Numbered from the stretch's first letter, positions 6,885 through 35,401 are shown. The stretch: DNA of 64,000 nucleotides from Escherichia coli (GCF_051903065.1 NZ_CP178438.1), one strand, 5' to 3'. Notes: a model not told the origin generated them from the sequence alone. A program made the numbers and translations.

Positions 6885-7637
6885 TTACTTCGCTTTACCC
6901 TGATTAGCAACCGCCGCTGCTTTCGCCGCGATCTCGTCAGCATTACCCAGATAATAACGTTTCAGCGGTTTGAAATTCTCGTCGAACTCATACACCAGCG
7001 GCACGCCAGTCGGGATATTCAGCTCAAGAATCTCTTCTTCGCTCATGTTATCAAGATATTTCACCAGCGCACGTAAAGAGTTACCGTGTGCAGCGATGAT
7101 CACGCGCTCACCGCTCTTCATACGCGGCAGAATGGTTTCATTCCAGTAAGGGATCACGCGGTCAATGGTCAGCGCCAGGCTTTCCGTCAGCGGCAGTTCT
7201 TTCTCGCTCAGTTTCGCGTAACGCGGATCGTGACCCGGATAACGCTCATCATCTTTAGTCAGTTCCGGCGGAGTCACTGCAAAACCACGACGCCACTGTT
7301 TCACCTGCTCGTCGCCATATTTTTCAGCAGTTTCCGCTTTGTTCAGACCCTGCAACGCACCGTAGTGACGTTCGTTCAGTTTCCAGGATTTCTCAACGGG
7401 CAGCCATGCCTGATCCAGTTCGTCCAGCACATTCCACAGGGTATGGATAGCGCGTTTCAGCACAGAGGTGTAAGCAAAGTCAAAGCTGTAACCTTCCTCT
7501 TTCAGCAGCTTACCTGCTGCTTTTGCTTCGCTTACGCCTTTCTCAGACAGATCCACGTCGTACCAACCGGTGAAACGGTTTTCTTTGTTCCACTGACTTT
7601 CGCCATGACGAACCAGAACCAGCTTAGTTACAGCCAT
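6885..7637 (-). CDS. gpmA: 2,3-bisphosphoglycerate-dependent phosphoglycerate mutase GpmA
   Basis: ORF with RHGESQWN histidine phosphatase motif; start set at [12 protein letters not shown] (250 aa) within the longer track ORF. Confidence 0.95.
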
Positions 7638-25948: not shown

Positions 25949-27232
25949 TTACTTCTTCGCCTCTGCAACCACTTTGCTACCCACGCCGCGATTATTGTAT
26001 TCCCACATGCGGTTGTAGTTAGTGTCATTCAGATTGCGCTGTATTTCGTCGCTATCGTCAACGCTGCCGGTATTACCCGCAAATGGACGATTGGAAATCA
26101 CCGCATCGCCCCACGGTTTAACCGTGTTAAAACCTTCGTTGATGGCGCTATCACGGATCACCACCTGACCGTTGGTATTGGCATCAACATCCAGCGAGCG
26201 GCCCAGTTGTGCCACGCCATCACCGGAAGCATTGAAACGGCTGTTTACGGCGAGGAAACCGTAATAGATGTTGGACAGCGTAGCCGGTGCAAACACATAC
26301 GCTTCTTGCTGAGTACGTGAGTTCACCACGCGGAATTCGGTGTTATCGAACACCACTGCGCCGCGACCAGAAACGATATCCACATCCCCTTCAATATAGC
26401 TGTTGGTCACCAGCGTACGCGGCTGACGGTTGGTTTCCAGACGGTTCTGCACACCGCTGTTGGTGACAAAGAAGGTGTTCTGACGACCGAGAATGTTAAC
26501 GTTGTTAATCTGTACCTGGTCACCGTCAGTACGCAGTGCCACCGCCGGATGGTTACCTGCATCTACGCTATCGCCCAGCGTGTTTTCGATGGTCAGATTT
26601 TGCAGTTGCAGGCCATTGTTTTGTGACCAGAAGACCGCAGAACACAGAACACCGATACTGTCGCTGCGTTTGCTCTGGCAGCTATCGTACATATACCACG
26701 CTGGTTTACCTGGCATATATTTGCCGCGCGGGTTGACGTCGTGACGCCAGTCGGCAGGGCTCATGCCACCATCAAGGGAAAGCCCAATCTTCACATCAAT
26801 CGGTTTTTCACCTGTACCGTACAGAGTAATTCCACCCGGGGCGGCAGGGACATACACCGTTCCCTGATACTCACCAGGCATCACGGCAATATACTGGCGC
26901 TTGTTGGTACGCTTGATAATTGCCGCATCTACCGCCGCCTGAATCGTGGTATGCGTTACACCTTGAGTACCCGCCGGGCCGACAACAAAGTCAGGTTGTG
27001 TAGGCAGGGTAATCGGGGAAGGATTCCACGCTGCAGCACCTGGTGTCAGGGATGCAAAATAGTGTTGAGCATCGAAATTCTGCGCTTCTTTTGCCGACAG
27101 AATCGGGCGAGAAGAGGTACCAGGCGCAGTTTGATCAGAAGGACGTTGATCGGGTGGTGTTGAGCTACAGGCGGTCAGCGTCACGCCAAAAGCCAATGCC
27201 AGCGCCAGACGGGAAACTGAAAATGTGTTCAC
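25949..27232 (-). CDS. ybhC: Outer-membrane lipoprotein YbhC (pectinesterase-like fold)
   Basis: 427-aa ORF with lipoprotein signal (LTAC); last backbone gene on the gal side of attλ. Confidence 0.9.
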   Translation of the reverse strand: MNTFSVSRLALALAFGVTLTACSSTPPDQRPSDQTAPGTSSRPILSAKEAQNFDAQHYFASLTPGAAAWNPSPITLPTQPDFVVGPAGTQGVTHTTIQAAVDAAIIKRTNKRQYIAVMPGEYQGTVYVPAAPGGITLYGTGEKPIDVKIGLSLDGGMSPADWRHDVNPRGKYMPGKPAWYMYDSCQSKRSDSIGVLCSAVFWSQNNGLQLQNLTIENTLGDSVDAGNHPAVALRTDGDQVQINNVNILGRQNTFFVTNSGVQNRLETNRQPRTLVTNSYIEGDVDIVSGRGAVVFDNTEFRVVNSRTQQEAYVFAPATLSNIYYGFLAVNSRFNASGDGVAQLGRSLDVDANTNGQVVIRDSAINEGFNTVKPWGDAVISNRPFAGNTGSVDDSDEIQRNLNDTNYNRMWEYNNRGVGSKVVAEAKK

Positions 27233-27267: not shown

Positions 27268-27366
27268 CGTTGAAGCCTGCTTTTTTATACTAAGTTGGCC
27301 TTATAAAAAAGCATTGCTTATCAATTTGTTGCAACGAACAGGTCACTATCAGTCAAAATAAAATCA
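27268..27366. other. attL (B-O-P'): core plus lambda P' arm
   Basis: GTTGAAGCCTGCTTTTTTATACTAAGTTGGCCTTATAAAAAAGCATTGCTTATCAATTTGTTGCAACGAACAGGTCACTATCAGTCAAAATAAAATCATTATTTG matches the lambda attP P' arm as recalled, with about one mismatch. Confidence 0.9.
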
Positions 27367-28137
27367 TTATTTGATTTCAATTTTGTCCCACTCCCTGCCT
27401 CTGTCATCGCGATACTGTGATGCCATGGTGTCCGACTTATGCCCGAGAAGATGTTGAGCAAACTTATCGCTTATCTGCTTCTCATAGAGTCTTGCAGACA
27501 AACTGCGCAACTCGTGAAAGGTAGGCGGATCCCCTTCGAAGGAAAGACCTGATGCTTTTCGTGCGCGCATAAAATACCTTGATACTGTGCCGGATGAAAG
27601 CGGTTCACGACGGGTAGATGCAATTATGGTTTCTCCGCCAAGAATCTCTTTGCATTTATTAAGTGTTTCCTTCATTGATATCCCGAGAGCATCAACATGC
27701 AATGTTGTAGGGATGGCAATTTTTACGCCTGTTTTGCTTTGCTCGACATAAATATATCCATCTACGATATCAGACCACTTCATTTCGCATAAATCACCAA
27801 CTCGCTGCCCGGTAACAACAGCCAGTTCCATTGCAAGTCTGAGCCAACATGGTGATGATTCTGCTGCTTGATAAATTTTCAGGTATTCATCAGCCGTAAG
27901 TCTTGATCTCCTTACCTCTGATTTTGCTGCGCGAGTGGCAGCGACCGGGTTTGTTGTTGCATGGCCTTCAGCTAATGCCTCTCGGAATGCATCGCTCAGT
28001 GTTGATCTGATTAACTTGGCTGATGCCGCCTTGCCCTCGTCTATGTATCCATTGAGCATTGCCGCAATTTCTTTTGTGGTGATGTCTTCAAGTGGAACAT
28101 CAGGTAGCCCCCTCCTTATTGCTTTAATTTTGCTCAT
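27367..28137 (-). pseudogene. int: Lambda-type integrase Int, 5'-truncated (C-terminal about 255 codons only)
   Basis: Translation MSKIKAIRRGLPD...HLLGHKSDTMASQYRDDRGREWDKIEIK matches lambda Int from about residue 101 to the C-terminus; homology ends at 28137 where the IS left end begins. Confidence 0.9.
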
Positions 28138-29340
28138 GTGTATTAGTCGCGACTTGATCTGACACTGAGCCTTGAAAGGTTGAGAGTTACCGGTTTTGAT
28201 ATGGGTGTCGAATCCTTATACAAAACACGAGGTAACTCTCATGCTTCATACTAACAATCCCGTCATCAAACACAAAGCCGGTTTGCTCAATCTGGCTGAA
28301 GAACTCCGCAATGTTTCGAAGGCCTGCAAAATCATGGGCGTCTCGCGTGATACGTTTTACCGTTATCGCGAACTGGCTGATGAAGGTGGGGTGGATGCAC
28401 TGATTAACCGCACTCGACGAACGCCCAATCTAAAAAATCGTACCGATGATGCAACTGAGCGGGCCGTTGTTGATTATGCCATCGCGTACCCTGCGCATGG
28501 CCAGCACCGGACCAGCAATGAGCTACGTAAGCAAGGTGTCTTCATCTCAGGAAGGGGTGTACGTTCTGTCTGGCTGCGGCATAACCTTGAGAACTTCAAA
28601 AAGCGGCTGAAAGCACTGGAGGAAAAAGTAGCCCGTGACGGTATCGAGCTGACAGAAGCACAGATAGTCGTTCTGGAGCGTAAAGCCAGCGATGACGAAG
28701 CGTGTGGTGAAATCGAAACCGCACATCCCGGTTATCTGGGCTCTCAGGATACGTTCTACGTGGGTAATCTGAAAGGAGTCGGACGCATTTATCAGCAAAC
28801 GTTCGTTGACACCTACTCGAAGGTCGCACACTGTAAACTGTATGTAACCAAAACACCGATCACGGCTGCTGACCTGCTGAATGATCGTGTGTTGCCATTT
28901 TACGAATCGCAAAACCTGCCAATGCTGAGAATACTGACCGACAGAGGAACAGAGTACTGCGGTAAGGTGGAACAGCATGACTACCAGCTATATCTGGCAA
29001 TAAATGATATAGACCACACGAAAACTAAAGCGATGTCACCGCAGACAAATGGCATCTGCGAGCGGTTCCATAAGACGATACTGAACGAATTTTATCAGGT
29101 GACGTTCCGTAAAAAGTTGTATGGAGCTCTCGATACATTGCAATCGGATCTTGATGAGTGGCTGGCTCACTATAATAATGAACGAACCCATCAGGGAAAA
29201 ATGCGCAATGGGCGGACGCCAATGGAAACGTTACTTGATGGAAAGCGCATCTGGGCCGAGAAAAATTTAAGCCGGATGTAATCTGACAGATACCTGTATA
29301 AATAACCGGTAACTGTCAGATCAGGTCTGAGCTAATACAC
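28138..29340 (+). mobile_element. IS element, about 1.2 kb, IS481-like (single-ORF DDE transposase, TGT...ACA termini)
   Basis: Imperfect terminal inverted repeats (left TGTATTAG..TTGATCTGACA, right TGTCAGATCAGGTCTGAGCTAATACACA) flank one transposase ORF; family is my inference. Confidence 0.7.
28241..29281 (+). CDS. DDE transposase (integrase-core type) of the IS element
   Basis: 346 aa from ATG at 28241 (track ORF starts at an upstream TTG); N-terminal HTH and DDE-type core region. Confidence 0.75.
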   Translation: MLHTNNPVIKHKAGLLNLAEELRNVSKACKIMGVSRDTFYRYRELADEGGVDALINRTRRTPNLKNRTDDATERAVVDYAIAYPAHGQHRTSNELRKQGVFISGRGVRSVWLRHNLENFKKRLKALEEKVARDGIELTEAQIVVLERKASDDEACGEIETAHPGYLGSQDTFYVGNLKGVGRIYQQTFVDTYSKVAHCKLYVTKTPITAADLLNDRVLPFYESQNLPMLRILTDRGTEYCGKVEQHDYQLYLAINDIDHTKTKAMSPQTNGICERFHKTILNEFYQVTFRKKLYGALDTLQSDLDEWLAHYNNERTHQGKMRNGRTPMETLLDGKRIWAEKNLSRM

Positions 29341-30238
29341 ATTTGTAGGCCTCGATACATCAGGGACTCCAAATTACGTTATAGATAACAACAGCAAACC
29401 AGCCCAGCGCAATACGATCATCGGTCTCTATGGCGAAATTAACGGGAACGGGATGGTAAGGGGGCCTTGGACAATTCTTGGTGCCAGAGCGCAATATAGT
29501 AGCTGGGTATCAACCATTGACCATATGTCACACCTAATCGGCACCGATGCTACAGCAGGTAACCAGGGGGGGGATACCTTAAGCGCATCAGTAAACAACC
29601 TCTGCCCATCTGGCGACTGGTCATTACTTGATGGTGTTCTTGGCGCTCCAATTGACTATCAGCTACAAGTAGTACCAGCAGAGGCATTGGTTAAAACTGA
29701 TGTAATTGAGCCTTCTGGTGTTGGAAGAGCATTTGGTGTGAATGCTGCAAGCGCCCAATGCAAGATAGTGGTTAACCTGACCAGAGCTAACACAGATTTT
29801 ATCAGGGGAGCATTCTATTGGTGGGGCGATGCTCCATTACAGATCGCATTGGAGACACAAGATAATTCAAATCAGATTTTCTTTCAGCCAGACAAATACT
29901 TTGGCATGAACCATGGAGGCTGGAGGCTTTACAGAATATCTGCCCCTACAAACGACTGGACCAAGGCATACCGTTTGGCAATCACGATATCATCTGGGAA
30001 GTCAGGATTCATAGGTGGTTCAATTTTTAGTTGTTATCAGGCCTCCCTTCTCCCTACTTTTTGTGGATGGAGGCATGTAAAAGTTCTGTCATCGGGTAAG
30101 CCAACAATCACTAACACTTCAGGTTTCGTAAATGGCATCCAGGCACACAGAACCTCTGTGCCATCATACCCAGGGGACCCTACGGTAATGTGGGTATGGA
30201 ACGGAACCACTTGGCTTACAGTGAATGCTTCTGCATAA
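29336..30238 (+). pseudogene. Phage tail-fibre or tailspike gene, 3' fragment only
   Basis: Reading frame opens exactly at the IS right end (29336) and runs to 30238; Gly/Ser/Thr/Trp-rich; sits upstream of gtrCBA as a tailspike does in P22-like phages; assignment is positional and compositional. Confidence 0.5.
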
Positions 30239-30265
30239 AAAAGGGTGGCCTAGCCACCATCTATG

Positions 30266-31873
30266 CTAAATACTTATTTTAACATCTGTATATCTTTCTT
30301 GACCTTTAAATAAACCGAATTCGATCCATTCGATATCACCTTTATCAATGTTTGCCCCTGTTAAAAAACCACCGTCAAAGTTCATTGAGTCAGGGTAGAA
30401 ATCGAAATTTTGTACCTTATCTTTCCCTTTGTATTTGACGTGTAGAAAAATCTTCAGAGCACCATCTTTTGGCAAGGTAATATTTCTGTTAGTCTCGAAT
30501 GCAATACGCCCATCATTTGTAATATAAACGTTCTTAACATCCGCTTGGCGTGGAATTATGTTTTTGTTTACGACCATCTTTTTTCCGCTGAATACAATCG
30601 AGTAGTCCAGTTTCGCCATATTCCTTTCAATTGAAAGCACCCCATAGTACTTTCCATAAGACCACTTGTTATGGTAAGGATCAAACTTGTCTCCACTCTT
30701 GGCAAGTTTAGAAAAATAGAAATCAGGTATTCTCAACTCCCTTTTCCCTTGCGAGATTTGCTTGTCGATTAAATACTTTCTAACCTCTGATTGATGGAAA
30801 GTTTCTTTGTAAGATTCATACATCCAAAGGTATTGAGGTATAAAATACAATATAACCAAAGCAAATAATGAGCATGTCAAATATTTTTGAGTTAAAGTGA
30901 AAAAAGAATCCTTTAATAAAAAAGATACAGCAATCAAAACAAGAATCAAAGTGCCATTTGCAGCCCTGGGAGGATAGGAAGGTGCTGCAAACATAATTAA
31001 GGATGTGGATAATGCTGCAAATAAGAATATCAATGCTAATGTTGTTGATTTCTTATCTGTCTTTTCGCGCAAGAGATTTATTAATGCGATAATTGTGAAA
31101 GCCAGAAATAAAGGCCACATGATGGAAATGACATCGGGCATCCTGGAGTATAAATGCTCAACTAGCCTTTCAATTAAAGGTTTAGAGTACCAGGCGCTAA
31201 AAGATTTGGCTCTTTCATAATTTCCTGGAGCGGCAATTAAGGCGATGAATCCCGCTAAAGATAATAAGGTATAGATAAGCCCTCTATGGCGTAAAGACCT
31301 AATTATATACGCATTATATAAATAATAAATGCCAGAGAGAATAACAACTACCGCGCCAGTATTTTCGTTTGAGCACCCCGCCATCACTGCGAGAATGGAG
31401 GTTAAATAGATGTTATATCTTTTTATTACGCACAATAAGTATGCGCAAATGAACATGTTTGTCCAAAGGTAATTTGCTGAACCAACAATCCAGAAAGTGG
31501 TTTGCCCTAAATTTGTATTGCTTACCCAGTAAAGCATAAAAATAGTTAATATTTTTATGCAATCGAATTTATTTATCTCTCCTGCTGAAGAACCAATAAG
31601 AAATATTAAATAAACACTTGAAGTCAATGCTAGTGAATTTGCTATTGCTCTATAAAATTCAGGAATGGAAAGCATCGCTGTGCTGGCATAATCAGCCACT
31701 ATTCTGCCACTCCAGCTCTCATAGTGCTTTAAGTGCTCAGAAATACTTAATCCCTTTAACGCGTAAAGATAATCATCTGAATGCATGGGTGTATGCATGC
31801 AAATGCTAAGAGTAATAAAAAATATTACTAACAAAGATAATGTATGTAAAAAATAACTATTTATTCTAGGCAT
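30266..31873 (-). CDS. GtrC-like serotype-specific O-antigen glucosyltransferase (polytopic membrane N-domain plus soluble C-domain)
   Basis: 535-aa ORF, about 10 predicted TM segments then a roughly 200-aa hydrophilic domain; AT-rich; downstream of gtrB with 1-bp overlap. Confidence 0.65.
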   Translation of the reverse strand: MPRINSYFLHTLSLLVIFFITLSICMHTPMHSDDYLYALKGLSISEHLKHYESWSGRIVADYASTAMLSIPEFYRAIANSLALTSSVYLIFLIGSSAGEINKFDCIKILTIFMLYWVSNTNLGQTTFWIVGSANYLWTNMFICAYLLCVIKRYNIYLTSILAVMAGCSNENTGAVVVILSGIYYLYNAYIIRSLRHRGLIYTLLSLAGFIALIAAPGNYERAKSFSAWYSKPLIERLVEHLYSRMPDVISIMWPLFLAFTIIALINLLREKTDKKSTTLALIFLFAALSTSLIMFAAPSYPPRAANGTLILVLIAVSFLLKDSFFTLTQKYLTCSLFALVILYFIPQYLWMYESYKETFHQSEVRKYLIDKQISQGKRELRIPDFYFSKLAKSGDKFDPYHNKWSYGKYYGVLSIERNMAKLDYSIVFSGKKMVVNKNIIPRQADVKNVYITNDGRIAFETNRNITLPKDGALKIFLHVKYKGKDKVQNFDFYPDSMNFDGGFLTGANIDKGDIEWIEFGLFKGQERYTDVKISI

Positions 31874-32790
31874 TACTTATTATCCTTCAAAATATAACGA
31901 GGACGCTGCTTAACCTCGACATAAATTCTTCCTATATATTCACCCAGGACACCGATTCCGATCAACTGGATGCCTCCAAGAAACAGGGTAGAAACCAGTA
32001 AAGATGGATACCCACGCACGGCGTTACCGAATGCAATCGTGTCAAATATCATCCAAGCACCATAAAGAAAGGCAGCACCGGCAACGAACAGGCCAATGTA
32101 AGTCCACATGCGCAGCGGAAAGGTAGAGAAGCTGGTGATCCCCTCAAGGGCAAGGTTCCAGAGTTTCCAACCGTTGAACTTCGTGCTGCCAGCTACGCGT
32201 TCTGCGCGCGCATATTCAACCACATCAGTGCGTCCGCCAACCCAGCTCAATACGCCCTTCATGAACAGGTTGCGTTCTGGCATGAGCTTAATGTTTTCCA
32301 CTACTTCGCGAGACATGAGCCGGAAGTCGCCGACATTCTCTTCTATCTGAGGGTTGCTGATTTTGTTGTGAAGTTTATAGAACCACTCAGCAGATTTACG
32401 CTTCAGCCGGCTGTCAGTGGAGCGGTCAGATCGCTTAGCCAGCACCATATCAGCCCCGGCCTGCCACTTCTCGATGAGGTGAGGAATGACCTCAATCGGG
32501 TCCTGAAGGTCAACATCAATCGGGATAACCGCCTCACCAGTTGCGTGGTCAAGCCCTGCGAACAGTGCGGGCTCTTTACCGAAATTACGGGTGAAGGAAA
32601 GAGGAACGACAAGCGGATCAGCCACAGCAAGCGCGTTTATAATTGATTCTGTCGCGTCTTTGCTGCCGTCATTTATGAAGACTATCTCGACTTCATGCTG
32701 CTGAAGCCCTTCAAATTCCCGAACAGTTTTATAAAAAATAGGTATCGCGTCTTCTTCGTTAAAGACGGGAACGACCAGAGAAATTTTCAT
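31873..32790 (-). CDS. gtrB: Bactoprenol glucosyltransferase GtrB (GT2 family)
   Basis: 305-aa ORF starting [13 protein letters not shown] with DxD-type region and two C-terminal TM helices. Confidence 0.9.
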
Positions 32791-33149
32791 TTCGCATCCC
32801 TAAAGACAATGAACTTTGAATAAATAAAACCGCACACCAGACTGATGGCGGAGAAGGTGATAAGAGTGATAATTGGAGGAAGCGAGCACTTATCAGCAGC
32901 CCATCCAACAGTAGCACTCAGTGTTCCCATGAACCCGACATATAACATGTAGCGCATCGTTGTAGTCGATGCTTTGAATGTGAATTTTGCATTCGCGAAG
33001 AAGCTAAAGCTCACAGCCACAACGAAACCTGCGAAGTTTGCCAGAGCCTGATTGGTATGCGCGGCATAGATACATACACCAAAAACCACCCAGTGTATAA
33101 GTGTGTTCAGCACACCAATCGAGGTGTACTTTGCAAATAGCTTTAACAT
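32787..33149 (-). CDS. gtrA: GtrA flippase-like small membrane protein
   Basis: 120-aa four-TM ORF directly upstream of gtrB with 4-bp overlap. Confidence 0.85.
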
Positions 33150-33454
33150 TTCTTCTATCAGCTAATAATCAAAGGCATGAAGTCTATCATCCAAGTCTCA
33201 ATCGATCGATGACTTGCTGTGGTTGATGAGACAAAACTGATGCACACAAAGATTTGCACTGGATTGCAAGGCTTTGTGCTCTTCGATAGTTGTTAAGGTG
33301 GATCACTCCGGCTTTTCATCAATCCAGTCCGCCCACCACTGCATCATCTCCCTGCGCTTATCGAGATACTGAGCATGGTTGTAAATTCAACTAACCCAGT
33401 GCATTGACAAAAAATTAGTGCAAGAAGACAAAAATCACCTTGCGCTAATGCTCT

Positions 33455-33625
33455 GTCTCAGGTCACTAATGCTATCTAAGTAGTTGATTCATAGTGACTG
33501 GATATGTTGTGTTTTGTAGCATTACGCAGTCTATTTATTAGACTAAAGATATTGTAATGCATTGATATTAATGGTTTTTAATGTTTCACGTTCAGCTTTT
33601 TTATACTAACTTGAGCGAAACGGGA
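33455..33625. other. attR (P-O-B'): diverged P arm, core, chromosomal B' arm
   Basis: P-arm-like sequence (...CAGGTCACTAATGCTATCTAAGTAGTTGATTCATAGTGACTGGATATGTTGTG...) roughly 80% similar to lambda P arm by eye; core at 33595-33609; then CTTGAGCGAAACGGG. Confidence 0.8.
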
Positions 33626-33699: not shown

Positions 33700-34176
33700 T
33701 TAACTAAACATCGCGGTAATCGATGCGCTTGCCAGAGAGTGGAAATGAACGTTAAACCCGACCATCGCGCCGCTGGCTCCTTCATCGACATCAATACGCT
33801 CTACATCCAGCGCGTGAACGGTAAAAATGTAGCGATGGGTTTCGCCTTTCGGCGGCGCTGCGCCATCGTATCCGGTTTTACCAAAATCGGTACGCGTCTG
33901 CAAAACGCCGTCTGGCATTGCTACCAGACCAGAGCCAAACCCTTGCGGTAATACGCGGGTATCAGCGGGTAAATTAACAACTACCCAGTGCCACTAGCCG
34001 GAGCCGGTTGGCGCATCCGGGTCGTAGCAGGTGACGACAAAACTTTTCGTTCCCGCAGGAACATCATCCCACGCCAGATGCGGTGAAATATTATCGCCAT
34101 CGTAACCCATGCCGTTAAAGACATGACGATGTGGCAACTTATCGCCATCGCGCAGATCATTACTGATGAGTTTCAT
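33700..34176 (-). pseudogene. ybhB: ybhB (PEBP/RKIP-family protein) with in-frame amber stop
   Basis: Track ORFs 33994-34176 and 33700-33918 are one frame split by TAG at 33994-33996, where I recall Trp in K-12 YbhB; downstream sequence WHWVVVNLPADTRVLPQGFGSGLVAMPDG... stays in frame. Confidence 0.85.
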
Positions 34177-34284: not shown

Positions 34285-35401
34285 ATGAAACGCGCATATA
34301 AATACCGGTTTTACCCGACAACTGAGCAGGCTGAGCTTTTAGCTCAGACGTTCGGCTGTGTGCGCTTCGTCTACAATTCCATCCTTCGTTGGCGTACCGA
34401 TGCGTACTACGAGCGAAAGGAAAAGATCGGTTATCTACAGGCCAACGCTCGCCTTACGGCGCTCAAAAAAGAGCCTGAATACATATGGCTGAATGTCCCC
34501 TCCAGCAGTCGTTGCGCCACCAACAAGCCGCCTTTGCTAACTTCTTTGCCGGACGAGCTGCATATCCGGCTTTCAAAAGCAAACGGCACAAACAGGTGGC
34601 TGAGTTCACTGCCAGCGCGTTTAAACACCGTGACGGCGAGTTGTATATAGCAAAAGCAAGTCGCCTCTGGATGTTCGCTGGAGTCGAGAATTACCCTCTG
34701 CGCCGTCAACCGTTACCATTTCCAGAGATAGCGCTGGCAGGTACTTTGTTTCCTGCCTGTGTGAGTTTGAACCTGTATCAATGCCTGTTACCGCTAAAAC
34801 GGTCGGCATTGATGTGGGCTTAAAAGATTTATTCGTTACCGATACCGGATTCAAAACCGACAATCCCCGCCACACCGCTAAATATGCGAAGCGATTAACG
34901 CTGCTACAGCGATGTTTAAGCAGGAAGCAAAAAGGCTCAAGAAACCGTATTAAAGCCCGCTTAAAGGTCGCCCGACTCCACGCGAAAATCGCCGATTGCC
35001 GGATGGACAATCTACACAAGTTGTCCCGCAAACTGATTAACGAAAACCAAGTTGTTTGCGTCGAATCCCTCAAGGTGAAAAACATGATCCGCAACCCGAA
35101 GCTGTCTAAAGCAATAGCTGACGCAGGCTGGAGCGAACTTGTTCGCCAGCTCCAGTACAAAGGCAAATGGGCCGAGCGGTCAGTGGTCGCCATTGACCAG
35201 TATTTACCGTCCTCAAAATGCTGTAGTTGCTGCGGTTTCACCATGCAAAAAATGCCTCTTAATGTTCGTAAATGGCACTGCCCTGAATGCGGCGCAGACC
35301 ATGATCGCGACATTAACGCGGCACGTAATATTAAAGCTGCCGGGCTGGCAGTGTTAGCCCACGGAGAGCCTGTAAACCCTGAATCGCAGCACGCGGCTTA
35401 G
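34285..35401 (+). pseudogene. tnpB: IS200/IS605-family tnpB (RNA-guided nuclease family), two frameshifts
   Basis: N-terminus MKRAYKYRFYPTTEQAELLAQTFGCVRFVYN; middle and C-terminal parts (VTISRDSAGRYFVSCLCEF, GIDVGLKDLF, CxxC...CxxC zinc finger) lie in two other frames; no tnpA nearby. Confidence 0.85.

Follow-up and report, generated by a model that had tools for sequence, protein, structure and literature searches.

A lambdoid prophage remnant with an intact gtrABC operon at the lambda attachment site of Escherichia coli

Introduction

Most gtrABC clusters described as bacterial sit in prophages, which range from largely intact to highly degraded (ε34 genome paper, PMC2629481). For Escherichia coli O44, the work of Wang et al. 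(2007, Microbiology 153:2159), as set out in PMC10304059, places gtrA, gtrB, and a specific transferase gene in a putative prophage that separates ybhB from ybhC, beside an attachment (att) site, and attributes the O44 glucose branch to these genes. Here, we analyze a stretch of 64,000 nucleotides (nt) of E. coli DNA (GCF_051903065.1, NZ_CP178438.1; hereafter the window, with positions counted from its first letter), in which a 6,316-bp prophage remnant lies between the same two genes. We conclude, with a probability of roughly 0.88, that this remnant derives from a lambdoid temperate phage, most probably P22-like, that had a lambda-type Int and attP, carried gtrABC, integrated at the lambda attachment site (attλ), and later lost about 35 kb in a deletion associated with an insertion sequence (IS) of the IS481 family. 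The resemblance to the O44 prophage, whose third gene is named wbbG, is one of gene content and location as described.

In gene order, the remnant is like P22, where tailspike, gtrCBA, attP, and int follow one another (with xis next in P22), the tailspike gene converges on gtrC, and gtrA adjoins att. The attP core and the integrase of P22, which targets thrW, differ from the lambda type found here, and P22 GtrC belongs to a different family. With lambda, the remnant shares the attachment core, nearly all of the P' arm, most of the outer P arm, the C-terminal part of Int, and a hairpin resembling tI/sib. Unlike lambda, it has a gtr operon and a fossil of an IntS-type integrase gene in place of the b region, and it lacks xis and Int residues 1-100. 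The K-12 element CPS-53 (KpLE1; argW-intS-yfdG-yfdH-yfdI) is likewise a degraded prophage that has kept gtrABC homologues, and the window matches it with 93% identity in gtrA, in the region upstream of gtrA, and in the final 84 nt of intS. CPS-53 differs in lying at argW, in having its IntS-type integrase gene directly upstream of gtrA, and in carrying a different gtrC (yfdI).

Other relatives share the attachment site itself. JNE131328 carries a complete P22-like prophage of 40,336 bp at attλ. Its left part runs from ybhC and attL through int, xis, early-left genes, N, repressor, cro, cII, replication, nin, Q, and lysis genes; its right part runs through terminase, portal, P22-family capsid, gp4, gp10, needle, ejection proteins, arc, and a tailspike with a head-binding domain to gtrC, gtrB, gtrA, an IntS fossil, attR, and ybhB. 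The right-hand end of ST3 has P22-type virion genes, tailspike, gtrCBA, attR, and ybhB. JEP4, an isolated Lederbergvirus, has a tailspike, an attP of the remnant's type, and a lambda-type int encoding 356 amino acids (aa). All three agree with the remnant in site, in the 15-bp core, and in a lambda-type int (98% nt identity for JNE131328). JNE131328 and JEP4 also share its P-arm variant and the IntS fossil and tI hairpin beside attP, and JNE131328 and ST3 its order tailspike, gtrC, gtrB, gtrA, attR. The intact P22-like elements at attλ are about 40 kb long, whereas in the remnant about 35 kb has been replaced by an IS481 element. The remnant's tailspike and gtrC alleles are unrelated at the DNA level to those of the P22-like prophages at attλ, and JEP4 has no gtr operon, unlike the remnant with its gtrCBA.

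Results and Discussion

Hybrid attachment sites bound the insert

The segment around the insert follows the E. coli chromosome order (pal, gal, mod, ybhC, bio, uvrB, and moa), and the insert occupies the position between ybhC and ybhB that is the classical attλ of the chromosome. The lambda 15-bp core, GCTTTTTTATACTAA, is present in the window in two exact copies on the + strand, at 27279-27293 and 33595-33609, with a core-to-core length of 6,316 bp. The chance expectation for core matches is 0.01, and two matches were seen in 0/100 shuffled sequences.

We aligned both junctions against lambda attP and the empty site of K-12. The left junction reads B-O-P', and the right junction reads P-O-B'. 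The B arm on the ybhC side (the core and the 300 nt preceding it) matches K-12 at 310/315 positions (98.4%), the B' arm on the ybhB side matches at 304/315 (96.5%), and the empty attB of K-12 corresponds to both outer flanks of the insert joined exactly. A preliminary description of this DNA, drawn up from the sequence alone, had proposed that two lambda cores bracket 6.3 kb at an occupied attλ, with the chromosomal B arm joined to a near-lambda P' arm and the int 3' end on the left and a P-arm-like sequence joined to the B' arm on the right. The alignments bear this out in each part: the hybrid BOP' and POB' sites match the empty K-12 site and lambda attP, the att-like arms align to the arms of lambda attP, and the boundaries agree with those given by K-12.

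To the left, the attL core (27279..27293, +) is followed by the P' arm (27294..27366, +), which matches lambda 27739-27811 at 72/73 positions and leads straight to the int stop codon; from the established picture of lambda att, we take this arm to hold the H' and P'1-P'3 sites. To the right, the P arm of attR (33455..33594, +) leads to the second core (33595..33609, +), also an exact match. The P arm matches lambda at 131/160 positions overall, with 75/80 (94%) in the outer half (P1-H1-P2) versus 56/80 (70%) in the inner half (the Xis/Fis/H2 region). The inner variant is that of the viable phage JEP4 and of the intact JNE131328 prophage, and its divergence from lambda is probably not decay. 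The X2 region carries two further changes that are specific to the remnant's lineage in comparison with JEP4 and JNE131328. Judged by their sequences, attL and attR both appear complete.

An IS481 element stands in place of most of the prophage

Next to attL lies the 3' part of a lambda-type int gene (772 nt; 27367..28138, -), which is interrupted at codon 100 by the IS and encodes Int residues 101-356. The fragment is identical to lambda Int over this range at 248/256 aa (97%) and at 753/774 nt, as expected from the earlier proposal that the integration module is of the lambda type; it matches the Pfam Phage_integrase model at 6.8e-41 and is labeled 'missing N-terminus' in RefSeq. Read from the lambda alignment, all Int catalytic residues (R212, K235, H308, R311, H333, and Y342) are kept. 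Residues 1-100 are gone, and with them the arm-binding domain and the beginning of the core-binding domain; neither an open reading frame (ORF) nor homology corresponding to xis was found within 27279-33609. Excision of lambda requires Xis plus an Int that has its arm-binding domain. The remnant, as had been predicted, is unable to excise by its own functions because it has no xis and its Int has no arm-binding domain. It thus derives from a lambda-type integration module that is itself no longer functional.

The IS481-family element that interrupts int is 1,201 bp long (28139..29339, +), with its ends set by comparison with three other copies. Its transposase gene (28241-29281) scores 279.2 bits against the NCBIfam model transpos_IS481 (NF033577), for which the cut-off is 224, and the element is bounded by imperfect terminal inverted repeats (TGTATTAG...TGATCTGACA). 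There is no target-site duplication at this copy, the flanks GCTCATG and CATTTGT being unrelated, while a plasmid copy of the same element (L011) is flanked by a 7-bp duplication, ACTGACT. The unduplicated flanks are therefore consistent with a rearrangement after insertion.

Comparison with the intact relative at the same site shows the extent of the loss. The remnant measures 6,316 bp versus 40,336 bp for the JNE131328 prophage, so that about 35 kb is missing and the description of the element as heavily deleted holds. The missing stretch begins at codon 100 of int and ends midway through the tailspike gene, and the IS481 element sits at the joint. The IS481-associated deletion would have taken xis and every regulatory, replication, lysis, and virion gene up to the tailspike, which lost its N-terminal half. 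It would have arisen either next to the IS, as a deletion that the IS mediated, or through recombination of two IS copies. We also considered that the missing 35 kb had been moved elsewhere by an IS-mediated inversion; judged from the window, this is unlikely, as both flanks of the IS keep the native prophage order and orientation. In strain 33F4, at about 2.608 Mb (L009), a 99.8% identical IS481 copy lies beside an N-terminal (head-binding) fragment of a tailspike gene, near mdtA.

The fragment beyond the IS belongs to a tailspike

The IS is followed by the 3' part of a tailspike gene (29340..30238, +), whose last about 298 codons encode the C-terminal part of the receptor-binding domain (RBD). 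It is annotated as a 'hypothetical protein' that starts at an internal ATG (29453), and it has no PHROG, NCBIfam, or Pfam match of its own. Since the family models gave nothing, we identified it through full-length homologues. Those that align over the whole fragment extend N-terminally into either a P22 head-binding domain (P0005, PF09008) or a Tail_spike_N domain (P0006, PF18668), and the gene of the homologue with the P22 head-binding domain adjoins P22 gp16 in L017/L018. A tblastn search against phages returned a single weak relative, CBA6, at 44%. The preliminary description had called this gene a tail fibre fragment. It was right about a tail-protein fragment but not about a fibre: according to the homologues, the fragment is the receptor-binding C-terminus of a tailspike.

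A close match to this part of the remnant comes from a different phage background. In the locus L016, the tailspike C-terminus together with gtrCBA is 93.9% identical to the remnant over 3,872 nt; there, the tailspike N-terminus is a Tail_spike_N domain (PF18668), and the integrase and early genes resemble those of HK639, which we take to be a lambdoid siphovirus.

Two side observations concern the tailspike genes themselves. The remnant's fragment contains a run of eight G (29566-29573), where the 94% identical L016 gene has nine (at about 7608-7616) and is split into two ORFs at that run. This could reflect a slippage-prone tract or an assembly error. Separately, the locus in L017/L018 (Logan ERR10930850 / ERR10766970; 4821-13864) is a degraded P22-like remnant near minCDE, with a split integrase gene, gp16, a frameshifted tailspike gene that has a related receptor-binding domain, and a gtrC of the Glucos_trans_II type.

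An intact gtr operon adjoins attR

The only intact phage-derived genes of the remnant are gtrA, gtrB, and gtrC. A candidate gene for the type-specific O-antigen glycosyltransferase, gtrC (30266..31873, -), encodes 535 aa with matches to Pfam DUF6056 (PF19528, 'GT_STM0557_N'; 3e-66) and to PHROG 20513 (1.7e-133). This STM0557-like protein is full length relative to its homologues, including 535-aa counterparts in Morganella and in L016, and its nearest relatives outside E. coli are from Morganella (73%, 535 aa) and Citrobacter (about 45%). Next to it, gtrB (31873..32790, -) encodes an intact bactoprenol glucosyltransferase of 305 aa (GT2; PHROG 841, GtrB-like, 2.4e-164), with 81-88% nt identity to gtrB of HF4s, SfIV, SfI, SfV, and SfII. 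An intact flippase of 120 aa for glucose linked to undecaprenyl phosphate (UndP) is encoded by gtrA (32787..33149, -; PHROG 2224, GtrA-like, 8.5e-71, 120/120 positions). The overlap is 4 nt between gtrA and gtrB and 1 nt between gtrB and gtrC. This matches the usual plan of a gtr operon, in which the genes for a small membrane protein of the GtrA family and for a GT2 bactoprenol glucosyltransferase abut or overlap, and a third gene specifies a variable, polytopic transferase that is type-specific. In a pattern scan, a terminator-like hairpin with a T run was found 3' of the gtrC stop codon (30244..30258, -).

By homology, GtrB would load glucose onto UndP, GtrA would flip UndP-glucose to the periplasmic face, and a GtrC of the STM0557 family would then attach the glucose at a defined position of the O-antigen repeat. 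Such an addition would alter the serotype and the receptor used by O-antigen-specific phages. Both the expression and the activity of gtrABC are inferred.

Upstream of gtrA, a region in which folding shows a hairpin at 33242-33280 (33150..33302, -) is 93% identical to the K-12 CPS-53 intS-yfdG spacer by blastn and alignment. It is followed by an 84-nt fossil of an IntS-type integrase gene (33303..33386, -), which preserves the last 27 codons of the 3' end and matches residues 359-385 of K-12 IntS at 25/27 aa. The fossil is 93% identical to CPS-53 in nt, occurs in JNE131328 and JEP4 as well, and marks where the gtr module meets the lambda-type att module.

Lambda homology restarts at 33405, with 85% identity between 33405-33613 and lambda 27534-27742. 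This stretch includes, distal to the P arm, a region resembling lambda tI/sib (33405..33454, -), with a hairpin at about 33405-33450 that folds as in lambda with one C·A mismatch in the stem (-17.1 vs -22.5 kcal/mol for lambda). Because int is dead, the mismatch is without consequence here. The hairpin at 33242-33280 was considered as sib and rejected, since both fold and alignment put tI/sib at about 33405-33450; it is instead the terminator that follows intS in phages of the CPS-53 type.

With these pieces, all bases of the 6,316-bp interval are assigned. The preliminary description had listed an int fragment, an IS, a tail fragment, and gtrCBA in the interior. All of them are present, and two small pieces had been missed, the IntS fossil and the tI/sib-like hairpin.

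The edge of this module also bears on lambda. In CPS-53/HF4s-type phages, intS is followed by a hairpin that matches 39 nt of lambda just past tI (27472-27510) with 95% identity. In the window, in JNE131328, and in JEP4, the IntS fossil separates that hairpin from tI; lambda has no fossil. This arrangement suggests that recombination within the 3' end of an IntS-type integrase gene put a lambda-type att/int module in its place, and that the edge of the lambda b region descends from the IntS/att joint.

Weighing the possible ancestors

The preliminary description saw in the order tail fibre, gtrC, gtrB, gtrA, att, int the arrangement of P22 and, given the lambda-type integration module, proposed a mosaic phage. 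We found the same order, starting with a tailspike gene, in P22, JNE131328, and ST3, and the same type of attP and int in JEP4, a Lederbergvirus, which supports a mosaic ancestor. Our reading of the history builds on features that are directly visible: the junctions, the gene content, the truncation points, the intact reading frames, and the intact relatives at the same site, in which P22-type virion genes are present. That the ancestor was P22-like is, taken by itself, a good probability; such a phage would be short-tailed with a tailspike and would have entered attλ by Int-mediated recombination.

Several observations weigh against this reading. None of the P22-type portal, capsid, gp4/gp10/gp26, or ejection genes is in the window; the region is deleted, with the tailspike fragment as the one virion gene left, so that a P22-like morphology of the ancestor is likely as judged from its relatives. 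The tailspike C-terminus and gtrCBA of L016 are joined to a non-P22 tailspike N-terminus and an HK639-like integrase, and in strain 33F4 an attλ remnant has long-tail fibre assembly genes beside gtr. The int fragment is 98% identical to that of the JNE131328 prophage but gtrB-gtrA is just 87% identical, which makes JNE131328 a relative of the same architecture and not the parent. On the side of function, a crude scan for sigma-70 consensus promoters gave none upstream of gtrA. The four GATC sites found upstream of gtrA in P22, an arrangement that we take to be the Dam/OxyR phase-variation control region, are not conserved, with one GATC at the fourth-site position. With neither a promoter match nor the GATC arrangement, expression of gtrABC is unproven, and with three of the four sites absent, it is doubtful that this E. 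coli gtr type phase-varies as P22 does.

The observations on L016 and 33F4 would fit an ancestor that was a lambda-att lambdoid of another morphotype, long-tailed or with another tailspike adaptor, and that carried the tailspike-RBD/gtrCBA module as mobile cargo. The cassette clearly travels between phage types, and such exchange of gtrABC has been described for Salmonella (PMC2629481). We nevertheless consider another morphotype rather unlikely here. Both complete or near-complete gtr prophages inspected at attλ, JNE131328 and ST3, are P22-like, the joint of IntS fragment, tI, and attP is common to the Lederbergvirus JEP4, and the tailspike gene beside gp16 in L017/L018 joins a homologous receptor-binding domain to the head-binding domain of P22 type. 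The unequal identities of the two ends to the JNE131328 prophage, which give each end a different nearest relative, might instead reflect two tandem prophages at attλ, with a deletion that ran from the int gene of the first to the tailspike gene of the second and removed the attP-like joint between them. Tandem lysogeny at attλ is a known phenomenon. However, mosaicism suffices to explain the unequal identities, a single prophage requires one deletion only, and no trace of a third core or of a POP' sequence remains, which leaves the tandem history improbable.

The apparent completeness of both att sites raises yet another reading, in which the element is a still-mobile gtr island that hitch-hikes on the Int and Xis of a co-resident or superinfecting phage of the lambda family. 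The P' arm is nearly that of lambda, the P arm keeps P1, H1, and P2 and has in its inner half the variant of viable JEP4, and potential helpers are common, as 35% of the complete E. coli genomes have a lambda-type int at attλ. A helper phage could conceivably excise the element in trans. A mobile island is nonetheless very improbable, since the element has no packaging, replication, or transfer function, its X2 region carries the two lineage-specific changes, and neither its site nor its sequence differs among the three carrier genomes. Thus, we favor a single lambdoid prophage, most probably P22-like, that was reduced in place by the IS481-associated deletion.

Distribution and significance

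We surveyed 5,426 complete E. coli genomes. The attB site is uninterrupted, and hence empty, in 3,488/5,426, and the junction of ybhC, BOP', and a lambda-type int occurs in 1,912/5,426 (about 35%). Fewer genomes (91/5,426) have the junction of gtrA, attR, and ybhB, and a distant blastn search found the remnant's tailspike/gtrC allele in 3/5,426. These three are the complete genomes to which the whole window is 100% identical (23CRST027, 23CRST031, and ECNB21-M121), and the same blastn search of the surveyed genomes found no intact parent with this tailspike/gtrC allele. A Shigella origin, which the pseudogenes and IS elements might suggest, is rejected on account of the full identity to these E. 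coli chromosomes. The allele is therefore rare, and the remaining arrangement is common and already published.

The remnant is a real but ordinary example of a previously described kind of prophage remnant. The current understanding is unchanged by it, as gtr operons in degraded prophages, including those at attλ, are already in the literature. What it offers is a clean, fully resolved case of prophage decay that spared the lysogenic-conversion genes, and it records the use of lambda-type integration modules by P22-like phages of E. coli. The strain may bear an unrecorded O-antigen modification, which would be relevant to serotyping and phage susceptibility. Tentatively, we suggest that the remnant has become a domesticated O-antigen-modification island, in which an expressed gtrABC would add an undescribed glucose branch and protect the lineage from phages with a matching tailspike, and that the 3.9-kb cassette of RBD and gtrCBA moves between unrelated temperate phages. 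The suggestion about the cassette is based on its 94% identity to the copy in the HK639-like context of L016, and we hold the combined proposal at somewhat less than even odds.

The attλ site of strain 33F4 (L020, NZ_CM147849.1 1127850-1138149) holds another remnant, of 10,299 bp, with int, xis, a few early genes, two IS5 copies, tail-fibre-assembly genes, another gtrC, and a gtrCBA-attR end.

Flanking chromosomal genes

The B-side gene ybhC lies at 25949..27232 (-) according to the RefSeq annotation of an identical record. On the B' side, ybhB (33700..34176, -) is a pseudogene in which codon 61 has changed from TGG to TAG; the stop lies at 33994-33996, where K-12 has GSGWWHW and the window has GSG*WHW. 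Between ybhB and bioA, a frameshifted TnpB/InsQ gene of the IS200/IS605 family occupies 34285-35401. This insertion has no counterpart in K-12 or JNE131328 and is present in strain 33F4.

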